Of a stretch of 64,000 bases of DNA, positions 4,401 through 40,348 are shown in pieces (within the stretch, counting starts at the first letter, position 1; the number at the start of each line of letters is the position of its first letter). Source of the DNA: Eledone cirrhosa. Taxonomy: Eukaryota. The stretch is taken from contig CAXHJY010000912.1 of assembly GCA_964016885.1 (NCBI GenBank), positions 62,001 to 126,000 of the forward strand. Direction: 5' to 3'. Both the position numbers and the translations under genes were made by a program. The notes under the pieces are model-generated. The model did no database searches. It was not told the DNA's origin and worked only from the letters and a program-made list of their open reading frames with translations.

Positions 4401-5606
4401 ACATATATATATATATACATATATATATATATATATATTCATATATATATACATATACATATATATATATTCATACATATATATACATATATATATATAT
4501 ATATATATATATACATATATATATATATATATATTCATATATATATACATATACACATACATATATATATATATACATATACATATATATACATATACAT
4601 ATATATACATATACATATATATATATATACATATACATATATATATATATACATATACATATATATATATATACATACATATACATATATACATATACAT
4701 ATATATACATATACATATATATATATACATATACATATATATATATACATATATACATATATATATATATATACATATATATATATATACATATATACAT
4801 ATATATACATATATATATATACATATATATATATATATACATATATATATATATACATATATATATACATATATATATATATACATATATATATATACAT
4901 ATATATATATATATACATATATATATATATACATATATATATACATATATATATATATACATATATATATATATATACATATATATATATATATACATAT
5001 ATACATATATATATATATACATATATATATATATACATATACATATATATACATATACATATACATATATATATATATACATATATATATACATACATAT
5101 ACATATATATATACATACATATACATATATATATACATATATATATATATACATATATATATACATATATATATATATACATATATATATATACATATAT
5201 ATATATACATATATATATATATACATGTATATATATATACATATATATATATATACATATATATATATATACATGTATATATATATACATATATATATAT
5301 ATACATATATATATATATACATATATATATATATACATATATATATATACATATATATATATATACATATATATATATACATATATATATATACATATAT
5401 ATATATATACATATATATATATATACATATATATATATACATATATATATATATACATATATATATATACATATATATATATACATATATATATATACAT
5501 ATATACATATATATACATATATATATATATACATATATATATATATATATATATATATATATATATATATATATATATATATATATATATATATATATAC
5601 ATATAT
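1403..5606. repeat. 4.2 kb compound (TA)n/(TACA)/(TACACA) microsatellite
   Basis: Almost continuous purine-pyrimidine alternation with C interruptions on the + strand. Confidence 0.99.
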
Positions 5607-6035
5607 ATTGTTATATTTGGGGAGGGTCATATTTGCGTAATATTGCCAGAATTAATAACAGAACACACTCACTGTTTGGTTGGTTTTCGTTTCTCGCTGT
5701 CTTTTATATATATATATATCTGCGATCTAACTTACTCGGTCCTCAATGTTGCCATTGACTGGCCGGCGGTCAAAAATAATACAGATACAATATAGACACA
5801 AACACATATATATAGTTTACATAATTTACATAAATCTTTCGTTGCACATCTGCAACATCGTCAGTGGTGTTATATTCATTGTTCCTCCTGTTGTGTTGTA
5901 TGTCTACGCCATTTTTTTGTTCAGTCTGTTATTAATTCTGGCAATATTACGCAAATATGACCCTCCCCAAATATAACAATATCTGTTTCGACACACGATT
6001 TCATATAAAAAACCTCGCAAAACTAATTCATCGCC
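5605..6035 (+). mobile_element. Non-autonomous mini-copy of the PLE at 7483-10954 (inverted 3' arm plus 3' terminus and tail)
   Basis: 5605-5929 is the reverse complement of about 10591-10909; 5925-6027 matches 10852-10954 directly; junction at the shared tctgt; flanked by TA arrays. Confidence 0.93.
5800..5874 (-). ncRNA. Hammerhead-like core in the mini-PLE arm
   Basis: Minus strand CTGACGA-t-gttgca-gatg-tgcaac-GAAA-g...cta, with a 9-nt duplication (tttacataa) in stem-loop III. Confidence 0.6.
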
Positions 6036-6370
6036 ATATATATATACATATATATATATATATATATATATATATATATATATATATATATATATATATA
6101 TATATATATATATATATATATATTTACATACATATATATATATACATATACATATATACATATATATATATATATATATATATATATATTTACATACATG
6201 TATATATATACATATACATGTATATATATACATATACATATATATATACATATATATATATATATATACATATATATATATATATATACATATATATATA
6301 TATATATATATATATATATATACATATATATATATATATATATATATATGTATATATATGTATATATATA
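6036..6370. repeat. (TA)n/(TACA) microsatellite
   Basis: Direct reading. Confidence 0.98.
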
Positions 6371-7260
6371 AGTATTGAAATTTCAGTTAGAAACAGAAAA
6401 GGTCATAGAAATGAAGAGTGCTCTATGTCAGTATCAGAGCAAAATTTAATGTATAAAATCAATACAATATTATTACCTCATTACCAGAGGTTTCCCGAAT
6501 GAGGCGAATACGAAATAAACGACTTCATTCGTTCGTCAGACGAGGCAATATAAAACATGGGCAAATACTTAGAAAAACACATCAAGAAAATCAAAAAAAT
6601 ATATAGATAAATGAAATAGAAATTGAAATATATAAAAATCTATCAAGAATCATAGATGTGCATATATGTATATGTGTAAATGTATGGTTAGAAAGTGTGC
6701 GTAATTATAAAAATAAAAGTTTAGGGCAAATGTATCTATATGTCTGTCTGTATTATGCAGACGGAAATGGTTACTTCGTAAAAATAAGAAAATAAAGTCG
6801 CGCGCATAAAAAACGGCTGGACACTCGTACATTTAGATACGGAAAGTAAGGAGATGAAGAGAGTATAATAAATAAAAGAAAAGTATCTATTACGATATAT
6901 TTATAAAAATATAGTAACGATAAATTAGAAAGACAAGATAGAAAGAAAAATTAAAGAAAACAAAAAAAAACACAAAAAAACAAAAAAAAAAAAAGCGGGG
7001 GTACATACATACACAGACACGCGTGTCTCGCAAAAGAAATGTAAAAATAATTATGCTTATATACACACACGCGCTTACACTTCCATGCGTTCGATACGTA
7101 CATACAGACAGACAGACAGACAGACACACACACACACACACTTATACTCGCGCATATAAACCTGTTTGCATGCCGATGTATGAAACTGGGTAAATAACAG
7201 AAGGGGAGGGGGGGGGGAGAAGAAAAAAGCAAGAAACAAACAAAAAAATATAAAACCGAA
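6371..7260 (-). mobile_element. Orphan PLE-type 3' UTR/pseudo-LTR of a third family, inserted in a TA array
   Basis: T-rich on the minus strand like the 440-1400 UTR; carries a type I hammerhead about 110 nt from its 3' end; TA arrays on both sides; no ORF. Confidence 0.65.
6471..6550 (-). ncRNA. Type I hammerhead ribozyme
   Basis: Minus strand: tattgcctcgt CTGACGA a-cgaatga...tcattcg-g GAAA cc-tct-gg TA atgaggtaata. 11-bp stem I (2 G-U), 7-bp stem II, short stem III, GUA cleavage triplet. Confidence 0.85.
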
Positions 7261-7486
7261 ATATATATACATATATATATATATATACATATATATATAT
7301 ACATATACATATATATATATACATATATATATATATATACATATATATATATATACATATATACATATATATACATATATACATATATATACATATACAT
7401 ATATACATATACATATATACATATACATATATACATATACATATATACATATACATATACATATATATATATATATATATATATAT
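7261..7486. repeat. (TA)n/(TACATA) microsatellite
   Basis: Direct reading. Confidence 0.98.
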
Positions 7487-7671
7487 TGTTATATTTGGGG
7501 AGGGTCATATTTGCGTAATATTGCCAGAATTAATAACAGAACACACTCACTGTTTGGTTGGTTTTCGCTTCTCGCTGTCTTTTATATATATATATCTGCG
7601 ATCTAACTTACTCGGTCCTCAATGTTGCCATTGACTGACCGGCGGTCAAAAATAATACAGATACAATATAG

Positions 7672-37538: not shown

Positions 37539-37706
37539 AGAGTCAGGACCCCGACGGCTGAGCTCCGGTTGTTCGGATCTAGCTGCTGAAACGACCGGAG
37601 CTCAGCCGTCTGGGCCCTGACTCTGTTCCTATTACTCACTACACTACCCTAAGTATTGAGTACTTTGGTGCATTATGGTCCACCTGGTATCTTACCACAC
37701 CCTCCT
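37539..37706 (+). mobile_element. GC-rich 35-bp-arm hairpin plus 80-nt tail between TG and TA runs
   Basis: agagtcaggaccccgacggctgagctccggttgttc / gaaacgaccggagctcagccgtctgggccctgactct, about 3 mismatches. Confidence 0.65.
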
Positions 37707-37728
37707 TTATATATATATGTGTGTGTGT

Positions 37729-38093
37729 TATTAAAAACCAAGAGATAGCTCTAGGTTTCCATACTTAAATTTATTATATTATATAACATCCATAATGTAC
37801 ATTTCATTGTTATTATGACTTATTATGTAATGGTTTACACAAGCCTAATATGTCATCATCAGGCAGATGTAAATAATGTCTATGGTATGTGAATTTACAT
37901 TTATCTTATGATGATGCATTAGACTTGTGTAACCATTAGGTAATAATGGTCTAATATCTCTGAAATGTGCATTAAGGATGTTATATAATATAAATATACT
38001 GAAGTATGGAAACATAGAACTGTCACTTCATTTTTAAATACAACAATACTCCATCAGATACCATACACATAATACCAATTCTTGCAAAATACA
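37729..38093 (+). mobile_element. Old fold-back element with decayed hammerhead motifs and tail
   Basis: 37729-37874 is an imperfect inverted copy of 37893-38040; minus arm reads acatctgc CTGATGA...GAAA tgtaca tt atggatgt. Confidence 0.7.
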
Positions 38094-40040
38094 TGGCAGA
38101 TTCATTGTAAATGTATGTAGAGTGAAAATGCAACTTATCTACTGGTATGACATATATACAGTAGTTATCACGAAATGCTTTCATTTACACAGGAAAACTT
38201 TGTAAACTTTAAAAAATTAACCTTATATTTATTAATAAGAGATAATTATCTTAGATGCTAATGTGTTCACATGTATTCAAACTTAGATTTTTAAAAAAAT
38301 TAAATAAAAAAGAAATCACATTTAAGAAATTGGAAGAAATAATAATAATAATAATAATAATAATAATAATAATAATAATAATAATAGCAATGAATGAATA
38401 AAGTTTTTGAAATATTATTAAACATTATCCATGTTATTTCTGTAGTCTATTGAATTTAAATTCAAATCTGATTTCATTTTAGTGATAAGAAGTCAGAATA
38501 GAATGGCGAAATTTGTGTAAACACTTTAAAAGCAGAATGTTTGTGCAGATATGCAAAGTGAATATTGAATGTGAATATGAAAAAAATAAAATGTTTTATG
38601 TTTGTTTACTTTAGATATCTGCAGAAACATAACATTCTGTTTTATTGTAATTTCAAAAGGGCACGGAATGGAAACAAAGCAATGGCTGTGTGGTAACAAA
38701 GTTTATTTTGTTAATATGTGGTTCTAGGTTAGAGTGGTAGATTGGCAGAATTGGTAAAGTGTCAGATAAAATGCCACTCCTCCTTCTGGGGTATATAAAA
38801 TTAAGTACCAGTTAAGTGTTTGGATTGATTTATTCAACATTGCCCCCTTTGCCACAAATTTGCTAGGCTTCTGTCTAAATTAGAAACCAATATGTAGTTC
38901 TAGCTTCAATCTCACCATGCAGCTCCTTGGGCAAGCCTTACAGCAGCCAACATTTTGTGGATGATATTTGGTACATGGAAACTAACTGTGTGGATCCCCA
39001 CTGACCATTACACTCTCTAGGGGAGATATGGCAGAGGTTAGTGTGTCAAAGAAAAATTGCTTGAAGTATTTTATTCTGCCTTGGTTACAAGCTTTTATTT
39101 TACATCTAAGACTTTGCCACTCTATGATAAAATTTGAAAGACAGCAAAAATTAGCAAAGTCAAGTGTAGAATAAAATACTTAGTAGTATATGTTCAGGAA
39201 ATCAGCGCTCTGAGCTCAAGTCTTGCTGCAGTCACCTTTGCTTTTGATCCGTTTGGGGGCCAGTAAAGAAAGAATGAACTCACTGCTAGTGCAGCTGTCA
39301 CATCCTGGATGCTATGCTCGATAAAGAGGGCAAGGCTCAAGATGATGCCTGTATCTGATCACAATGACATAGTCACTTAAATTCAGTAACAAAAGCATCG
39401 TATACAATACCAAGTCACCCTCTACCACAAGTAATAGCTATAGTCTTTGTTGTTTAGCTCTAAGTCAGCCTTGATCAAGTAGAGCTATGGTCAAAGACAT
39501 TCAAGATGTGATCCAATATTTTGTATATCTAGATCTATATTATCTATTTAATGTGCCCTTTCCTTTTTTAAAAATTATAGGGTGTGATGTGAGGGAATTT
39601 AGCTGCTATTTCTAACAGGCTGGGCGATGGCATAGACACACAAGTAGCCTGTGGTGGAACAACAACCAATAATACATCTACTATTACTACCACCACCACA
39701 AACATTACAAAACCACATGTAGAATAACATGCACGCATGCATGTTATTCTACATGTGCACATACACACACATACACAAACAAACATGGATTTTAAAAAAT
39801 GCACGCCTGTTCTACAAGCATTCTCTGCAGTGACATCCTTGTCCACAATCATATAAGAAAACCCACATCTTTAATCTTTGGCATTAGATGGTGTTTGAAA
39901 GGGCAATTAAAACAAGCTATGTTTATTTTTCAGTTTCAAGATAAATTATCAGAAGTAAAGACTATAAGTATAGTTCAACATAAGGAAACAATTAACCCCT
40001 CCTTTTATTGAATATATATATATATATATATATATATATA

Positions 40041-40188
40041 TATTTCCTGTTGGGCCTATGTATGCTTGTATGTATATGTATGTATGTATGTATGTATATA
40101 TATATATATATATATATATATATATATATATATATATATATATATATATATATATATATATATAACATACATTGGCCCAACAGGAAAT
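40041..40188. repeat. 24-bp inverted arms enclosing a TATG/TA microsatellite
   Basis: tatttcctgttgggcc-t-atgtatg / catacat-t-ggcccaacaggaaata. Confidence 0.8.
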
Positions 40189-40348
40189 AATAGACACATA
40201 CACCTATGTATGATGTCTGCAGTGAGTGTAGCAGAAAAAATACATTAAAATCAATCAATGTCACAGGGTAGAATAAATCTTCATACATTCTTTATGCTGA
40301 GATACTCATTGTGATGTCACCATGAAATTAGAGTTTTATTTCGTTATA

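Follow-up and report, generated by a model that had tools for sequence, protein, structure and literature searches.

Fold-back structures beside microsatellites in an Eledone cirrhosa contig: four of seven as probable 5′-truncated copies of Penelope-like and other retroelements

Results

Seven fold-back structures in the window

We analyzed a 64-kb stretch of the Eledone cirrhosa genome (assembly GCA_964016885.1, contig CAXHJY010000912.1, positions 62,001 to 126,000; hereafter the window, in whose coordinates all positions are given). It belongs to a 3.0-Gb, microsatellite-rich animal genome, and Tandem Repeats Finder (TRF) reported 112 tandem-repeat rows across it. A previous sequence-only reading had listed seven insertions, at 5605, 7483, 25181, 29059, 37539, 37729 and 40041, sharing one layout: microsatellite, inverted arm, forward arm and unpaired 3′ tail. 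This layout was present at all seven sites, with the dinucleotide microsatellite flanks that had been claimed (TRF), and the four structures tested by RNA folding were far more stable than their shuffles (z −8.6 to −25.8). The families are also unrelated at the DNA level, with between-family matches of at most 13 nt; 5605 and 7483 belong to one family. As insertions, the seven fared differently. Those at 5605, 7483, 29059 and 37539 are copies of repeat families (here families 1, 3 and 4), but 25181 and 40041 are single-copy and nothing shows insertion. The seven structures are, therefore, not one class but four copies from three families, one member of an old family (37729, family 5) and two singletons.

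We consider it probable that the four copies at 5605, 7483, 29059 and 37539 stem from three retroelement families and are 5′-truncated, and that each strand of a cut microsatellite primed the reverse transcription that gave them their shape. Two of the families are Penelope-like elements (PLEs) with reverse transcriptase (RT) and GIY-YIG endonuclease genes. The closest named protein matches of the retroelements in the window are octopod proteins. Copy numbers given below come from tail-pattern searches of the genome with reversed patterns as control (0 matches), and the anatomy of families 1, 3 and 4 from samples of 30 loci each.

Family 1, a Penelope-like element at 5605 and 7483

The first structure lies at the end of a (TA)n microsatellite (1399..5608; TRF), the target of the insertion. 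In BLAST comparison with a 4147-bp reference unit, it consists of an inverted, 5′-truncated and tail-less copy (5605..5921, minus strand, reference 4090 down to 3785) facing a forward copy (5925..6035, plus strand, reference 4033–4143), whose final 53 nt (5983–6035) are a tail absent from the inverted copy; the arms are 95–98% alike. At 7483, the same arrangement is larger and its arms are unequal. A tail-less inverted copy (7483..8751, minus strand, reference 4090 down to 2815), 5′-truncated to 1.27 kb and carrying a partial endonuclease open reading frame (ORF) on the minus strand, faces a forward copy 5′-truncated to 2.2 kb (8746..10954, plus strand, reference 1917–4135, tail 10910–10954), with 892 nt of forward-only sequence between the paired parts. 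An ORF in the forward copy (8737–10380, plus strand) covers a C-terminal part of the RT, a Zn-finger-like CxxxxCxxC motif and GIY-YIG.

A 42-nt tail pattern of this family matched the genome 3047 + 3080 = 6127 times, its reversed control not once, and the tails often recur at a spacing of 4147 bp, corresponding to tandem units (pseudo-LTRs). The 4147-bp unit was taken from one tandem array (L167); it contains two open frames, 559 and 675 aa long, that overlap. The 675-aa frame matched Pfam RVT_1 at E = 1e-4, under the curated cut-off, and had 284 homologues at E ≤ 1e-5, the best being an octopus RT-domain protein with 69% identity. Its named homologues are RT-domain proteins, and one homologue (P0091) carries a precomputed PF01541 (GIY-YIG) assignment. 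The C terminus of the family 1 ORF reads CxxxxCxxC ... VVYSIRC ... YIGET, and a CxxxxCxxC Zn-finger-like motif with a GIY-YIG core is described for PLE endonucleases (PMC8557442). A further locus (L214), with GIY-YIG over the Pfam cut-off, has 1036 nt in common with family 1.

Among the 30 loci sampled, 12 were unbroken over >1.5 kb, one had an internal deletion, two were truncated without a partner and 15 adjoined an inverted copy, that is, 15 of the 18 truncated or rearranged copies. The outer end of the inverted copy was at reference 4090 in all six visible cases, 57 nt short of the full 3′ end, while the arm junctions differed between loci and were mostly asymmetrical. Forward copies ended at 4147 or ~4133–4135. 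The sequence-only reading had proposed three tails ending alike, which is not borne out, since family 1 stops at 4147 or ~4134 and not at its proposed end ‘cctcgcaaaac’.

Family 3, a Penelope-like element at 29059

The structure at 29059 combines a tail-less inverted copy (29066..29243, minus strand, reference 4158 down to 3981) with a forward copy (29242..29510, plus strand, reference 3981–4248) whose tail occupies 29414–29510; the alignment of the forward copy to the family reference covers 29242–29504. The window copy is symmetrical, both arms breaking at reference 3981. The 4254-bp unit used for BLAST was obtained by upstream walking and from a tandem pair (L171) with a tail spacing of 4254 bp. 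The tail pattern gave 1744 + 1723 = 3467 genome matches (reversed control 0). A 359-aa RT-like frame with YRDD has 223 homologues of ≥630 aa, one of them from another octopod, and aligns to the RT palm of family 1 at E = 0.035. The frame downstream is GIY-YIG-like, matching PF01541 at E = 0.0015, 0.0085 and 0.061 in three copies, under the cut-off, and homologue P0133 has GIY-YIG at residues 598–622. Homologues also carry the precomputed Pfam families PF26215 and PF28514. Judged by their predicted products, families 1 and 3 are Penelope-like elements with RT and GIY-YIG genes; the longer tail-bearing copies joined to RT/GIY-YIG ORFs that had been anticipated were thus found for both.

An inverted copy adjoined 23 of the 30 loci, its outer end lying within reference 4148–4165 in 19 of the 30 and lacking the 93-nt tail, whereas forward copies started anywhere from 3375 to 4204. 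The 3′ region of the family also contains an internal direct duplication of ~290 nt at reference ~3380–3930 (for example, L049 700–1290), and a 9-bp stem lies immediately 5′ of a truncation hot spot considered below (reference 3934).

Hammerhead motifs

Four hammerhead cores had been proposed for these structures. Our own descriptor recovered one full minimal hammerhead, and families 4 and 5 failed it. Rfam detected no hammerheads on the whole window at the gathering threshold and, at E ≤ 10, none on 36 kb, on the seven elements alone (2.3 kb) or on 201 nt of an intact family 3 copy; its matches on the hairpins were generic miRNA-hairpin models. Minimal PLE-type hammerheads without a stable helix III are described in PMC4209133. 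If the motifs are of this minimal type, the silence of Rfam is expected because such hammerheads lack that helix.

The predicted PLE-type minimal hammerhead lies in the inverted arm of family 3 (29119..29173, minus strand). It comprises CUGAAGA, a 10-bp helix II with one C-C mismatch, GAAA, a palindromic UAUAUA and a 5-bp helix I; the helix II, the UAUAUA palindrome that replaces helix III and the short helix I are features given in PMC4209133. This motif is the sole full descriptor match in 64 kb on both strands (shuffles, mean 0.04). Its counterpart in the forward arm, with a core at 29317, is broken by a change of GAAA to GAAU. CUGANGA and GAAA are kept in 58 of 66 family 3 copies, and identity to the consensus is 0.968 for core and stems versus 0.954 elsewhere, which gives no usable constraint signal in this young family. 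A cleavage site serving as copy end was considered and rejected, as no clustering of family 3 junctions was seen at the predicted position, reference ~4101.

Family 1 has a hammerhead-like core at 10656..10701 (plus strand), with the same motif on the minus strand at 7731 and 5864. It combines CUGACGA, one bulged U, a 6-bp helix II with G10.1-C11.1 and GAAA, with no convincing helix I or III; core and helix II together matched three times in the window, all in this family (shuffles, mean 0.03). The apparent core at 37539 reads ‘gtcgaaacgg’ in most family 4 copies shown, and the descriptor found no hammerhead in family 4 on either strand or across a tandem junction. At 37729, CUGAUGA and GAAA are present with no adjacent helix II. 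The term ‘ribozyme-bearing’, applied earlier to the hairpins in general, can accordingly be kept for family 3, as a descriptor-based prediction, but not for the rest.

Family 4, an ORF-less family at 37539

The small hairpin at 37539 belongs to a family of ~140 nt without an ORF. By BLAST, its inverted arm (37537..37568, minus strand, reference 56 down to 25) lies beside (GT)n, and its forward arm (reference 1–58) with a tail of ~82 nt (37571..37711, plus strand) is followed by (TA)n(TG)n; the forward part aligns to the family reference over 37571–37704. The commonest tail form matched the genome 643 + 672 = 1315 times (reversed control 0), so there are at least 1315 tails. The forward part never exceeds ~58–60 nt plus the 82-nt tail (0 of 43 loci longer). 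An inverted arm was present in 25 of 30 loci, with its outer end at reference 52–64 in 23 of the 30, while inner ends and forward starts varied from reference 1 to 74. Besides hairpins, we observed copies with the inverted arm and tail only, forward-only copies and a tail on the inverted copy. BLAST revealed no similarity to families 1 or 3, so family 4 has no 3′ end in common with them, and neither tandem spacing nor paired tails were present among the 100 matches listed. Within the window, family 4 and family 5 copies stand back to back at 37537–38090 with one (TA)n(TG)n microsatellite between them, which looks like repeated use of a target.

Because family 4 exhibits the same anatomy as families 1 and 3 in 43 loci, the copy at 37539 was likely mobilized by PLEs, and the family as a whole is likely mobilized by PLE machinery. 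The earlier proposal that the small hairpins are PLE products can be retained for four of the seven, for 37539 only as likely, but not for the single-copy 25181 and 40041. The proposed size continuum is present within families, with inverted arms of 40 nt to >1.4 kb in family 1, 37–733 nt in family 3 and ~9–62 nt in family 4.

Hairpins of this kind might be taken for miniature inverted-repeat transposable elements (MITEs) or foldback DNA transposons, which depend on a transposase recognizing their terminal inverted repeats. They are short, high-copy and hairpin-shaped and score as miRNA-like in Rfam, and true MITE-like elements with TTAACCC termini do occur in the window at ~58109–58353 and 60509–60697. 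The variable copy forms of family 4, however, exclude a fixed-length MITE and agree with a short template undergoing the same process as families 1 and 3. From copy to copy, both the center and the arm length differ; the two arms of a copy are frequently of different size, an unpaired 57–93-nt tail marks one end, and some copies are forward-only or inverted-only. Moreover, the genes in long copies of families 1 and 3 are those for RT and GIY-YIG, with no transposase. The sequence-only reading had named fixed length and center, target-site duplications and the lack of any link to PLE ORFs as the marks of such transposons; instead, centers vary and families 1 and 3 carry the ORFs, while target-site duplications are not readable within microsatellites. 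The MITE reading is, thus, largely refuted for families 1, 3 and 4, and we regard it as highly improbable. The two MITE-like elements have related inverted termini, TTAACCCTTTA..., and from their TTAA ends may be of piggyBac type, which is our assumption.

Microsatellite flanks

We asked how often a microsatellite lies within 40 nt of the 3′ end, relative to control windows from the same loci. This was so in 26 of 30 family 1 loci (the four misses being tandem continuations; controls 145/600), 30 of 30 family 3 loci (controls 103/600) and 26 of 30 family 4 loci (controls 89/600). Upstream of the inverted end, the values were 5/6, 18/19 and 18/23, respectively. The 3′ ends of the three families adjoin (TA)n or (CT)n, with controls at 15–24%; across the window, 265 of 1599 40-nt windows contain a microsatellite.

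A short interspersed nuclear element (SINE) derived from a tRNA (30800–31140; tRNA model 28.3 bits, just below cut-off), ending in (GAT)n, is likewise inserted within (TA)n. Its (GAT)n tail was the family 4 target in 4 of 30 loci (L067, L073, L086 and L089), and its head adjoins (TA)n again at L090, L062 and L178. Tandem arrays elsewhere in the window occupy 44381–44934 (60-nt unit, nine copies), 59706–59918 (50-nt unit, four copies) and 20324–20606 (21-nt unit, 14 copies).

Family 5 and single-copy palindromes

Family 5 at 37729 is an old repeat (37731..38090, plus strand) with arms of ~150 nt at 37731–37885 and 37893–38037 that are 77% alike. The supposed tail at 38038–38090 is not the 3′ end of the family; several other copies continue 80–190 nt past it, and ‘tcttgcaaaat’ is, thus, not a shared tail end as had been suggested. 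Family 5 copies are 70–87% identical to one another, in four loci the repeat stops at the arm boundary, next to a microsatellite, and no ORF was found in the copies examined.

The structure at 25181..25251 (plus strand) is a single-copy palindrome with 24–25-nt arms, one mismatch and an (AT)5 center, 14 nt before (AC)n. Neither arm nor tail had another copy in the genome; a 25-mer search at ≤3 mismatches gave five matches including its own two arms (control, one). Since the arms differ by a single base, a young high-copy parent would have been seen. At 40041..40240 (plus strand), 16–23-nt arms (40041–40063 and 40167–40189) flank a TA/TATG microsatellite, and the right flank is genome-unique. 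This single-copy inverted repeat had no other copy in the 3.0-Gb genome (≤3 mismatches, BLAST), and the unique part of its arm spans only 14–16 bp, for which we roughly estimate ~0.05–0.1 chance occurrences in 64 kb. A third single-copy hairpin absent from the earlier list, a perfect 20-bp stem with a 4-nt loop, lies beside CA-rich repeats at 39714–39757.

Could all seven structures nevertheless be PLE products, with 25181 and 40041 copied in trans from RNAs that are rare or unique? Both have the same layout beside a microsatellite, and PLEs are reported to retrotranspose host sequences in trans (PMC8557442). Yet the assembly holds no second copy of arm or tail (≤3 mismatches, BLAST) and thus no source, the singleton hairpin at 39714 lacks the tail layout, and the unique arm part at 40041 is as short as given above. 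We consider this extension decidedly unlikely. As there is no second copy in the genome, support for 25181 and 40041 as insertions is lacking, and local fold-back repair at fragile microsatellites is the more likely origin for 25181, 40041 and 39714.

Proposed origin of the fold-backs

The feature common to families 1, 3 and 4 is that the inverted partner stops at a fixed internal site (reference 4090, ~4158 and 58–62, respectively) and lacks the tail of 57, 93 or 82 nt. It is because of this one fixed position that the inverted copy is tail-less. Insertions with an inverted 5′-truncated copy, a tail and a (TA)n bias have been published for PLEs (PMC8557442). In vitro, a PLE protein from Anolis cleaves and extends both target strands, prefers AT-rich DNA and starts reverse transcription at two internal RNA sites, the interval between which equals the tail (Frangieh et al. 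2024, PMC11167929). Extrapolating from that study, the endonuclease would nick both strands of an AT-rich target, and RT would start at two internal RNA sites, one per strand, so that the tail is the stretch between them. Joined head to head, the two cDNAs would leave a tail-bearing copy facing a tail-less one. Truncation acts independently on the two copies, and arms accordingly range from ~9 nt to >1.4 kb. Both cDNAs may often run off the same template 5′ end, which is suggested by an excess of symmetrical junctions and by family 4 arms that both reach reference 1–9. The ORF-less 140-nt RNA of family 4 would likely borrow the machinery of some PLE. Fold-backs would then be an ordinary by-product of PLE insertion, which we consider likely.

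Several observations weigh against this interpretation. The Pfam matches of the RT and of the family 3 GIY-YIG domain are under the curated cut-offs, and families 1 and 3 align colinearly but weakly (E = 0.035 and 0.19). Some head-to-head pairs of family 1 have tails on both copies (L003/L004 and L009–L011), so a tail-less inverted copy is frequent but not a rule. Family 3 has a truncation hot spot at reference 3928–3951 (11 of 30 loci), and about nine of 21 junctions in this family are near-symmetrical, which two fully independent truncations do not predict. Because the tRNA-derived SINE also sits in (TA)n, microsatellite homing is not PLE-specific here, and microsatellite adjacency alone does not mark a PLE. 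For family 4, a link to an ORF was not found: among 30 GIY-YIG loci examined of at least 10595 candidates, the family stood beside two, both in opposite orientation. Across the whole genome, the GIY-YIG scan gave at least 10595 candidate places, and since all 150 of the 150 scored exceeded the Pfam cut-off, PLE-type endonuclease genes are very numerous in this genome. Finally, two-strand priming is carried over from an in vitro study of a lizard element.

Family 4 might alternatively have been retrotransposed as a whole hairpin RNA of ~215 nt, with variable centers produced by RT skipping the stem or by later deletion of the center. Long palindromes are known to lose their centers. Near-perfect palindromes with arms reaching reference 1–9 (13 inverted and 15 forward of 30), together with the failure to find a longer parent in any of 43 loci, agree with such a template. 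It accounts poorly for loci with a complete inverted arm that lack the forward arm and some of the tail (L063, L073, L081 and L086), for forward-only copies (L077, L082 and L179) and for one inverted copy with its own tail (L183), the last of which also speaks against two-strand priming as outlined here. The same anatomy furthermore recurs in families 1 and 3, both of which have full-length forward elements. A hairpin-RNA template is, in our assessment, unlikely.

The assembly itself could have created fold-backs through chimeric palindromic reads, and complex PLE insertions are known to trouble assemblies (PMC8557442). Thousands of copies with one fixed tail-less end and differing unique flanks on many chromosomes are difficult to reconcile with such artifacts, as are arms that have diverged from each other (those at 5605 are 95–98% alike, those at 37729 77%). 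The family is also present in contigs from other public runs, and we regard an artifact as extremely improbable. In public RNA runs, only 8–11% of sampled words were present and none contained the family sequence; the family was found as contigs in two public runs of unspecified kind, which as contigs cannot show transcription or ends.

Discussion

Two-strand priming by PLE machinery remains our preferred explanation for the copies at 5605, 7483, 29059 and 37539. The underlying biology is known. The PLE insertion signature and microsatellite bias (PMC8557442), PLE hammerheads (PMC4209133) and PLE abundance in coleoid cephalopods (PMC8967140) are already published; non-autonomous derivatives are likewise in print, and the families described here are new members. 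For annotation, our results mean that thousands of short perfect hairpins beside microsatellites are truncated retroelement insertions and not MITEs or miRNA genes, despite their miRNA-like Rfam scores. Caution is warranted in the other direction too: a palindrome beside a microsatellite is not always an insertion, three in this window being unique.

Being ORF-less and 140 nt long, family 4 hints at a SINE-like parasite of PLEs distinct from retrozymes. One could go further and suppose a new kind of PLE parasite, a 140-nt RNA with neither ORF nor hammerhead that was deposited 1300 times or more and almost invariably in the form of a tailed fold-back hairpin, since both strands are primed and both cDNAs run off the template. 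Together with truncated PLE fold-backs, it would seed perfect hairpins that could feed small-RNA or RNA-editing pathways, and single-copy palindromes would reflect the same endonuclease cutting without a template. We offer this combined scenario tentatively and rather doubt it. A limited literature search returned nothing on hairpin-only PLE parasites.

Families 1 and 3 resemble published PLEs in encoding RT then GIY-YIG in one reading direction and in forming tandem pseudo-LTR units. Heavy 5′ truncation, an inverted 5′-truncated copy on the 5′ side, a tail at one end and a (TA)n target are further points of agreement, as would be the predicted minimal hammerhead in the 3′ region of family 3. 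The CxxxxCxxC motif before GIY-YIG in family 1, as read from the sequence, resembles that described for Neptune and Nematis. Families 1, 3 and 4 differ from published PLEs in their longer tails, which measure 57, 93 and 82 nt, respectively, against the 30–40 bp cited there, and family 1 also in its three 3′ end classes (4090, ~4134 and 4147).

Among non-autonomous PLE derivatives, animal non-LTR retrozymes and MRC1-type elements of Chlamydomonas are, like family 4, short, ORF-less and high-copy with PLE-type ends. Retrozymes, however, are tandem, circular and bear a hammerhead, of type I in the animal non-LTR kind, whereas family 4 has no hammerhead by our descriptor and no tandem arrays among the 100 matches listed. 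An assignment of family 4 to the animal non-LTR retrozymes was rejected on these two grounds.

MITEs are also short, abundant and hairpin-forming, but the variable center, unequal arms, unpaired tail and retroelement parent set the present families apart. In twin priming of L1, the opposite strand of the target also serves as a primer, which similarly yields an inverted 5′ segment. That segment, however, is copied from a different part of the RNA farther upstream, whereas the two arms seen here derive from one and the same 3′ region, with the second start at a fixed internal site.

The closest parallel is the Poseidon PLE of Anolis carolinensis (PMC11167929), for which two-strand extension from two RT starts predicts tail-bearing facing tail-less copies in AT-rich DNA. 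Unlike that prediction, some pairs have two tails, and the Poseidon data are biochemical and concern one vertebrate element, while ours are genomic and come from a mollusc-type genome. Three unrelated families in which a tail-bearing end lies opposite a fixed end without a tail, in (TA)n, give independent genomic support for the in vitro model from a distant phylum.

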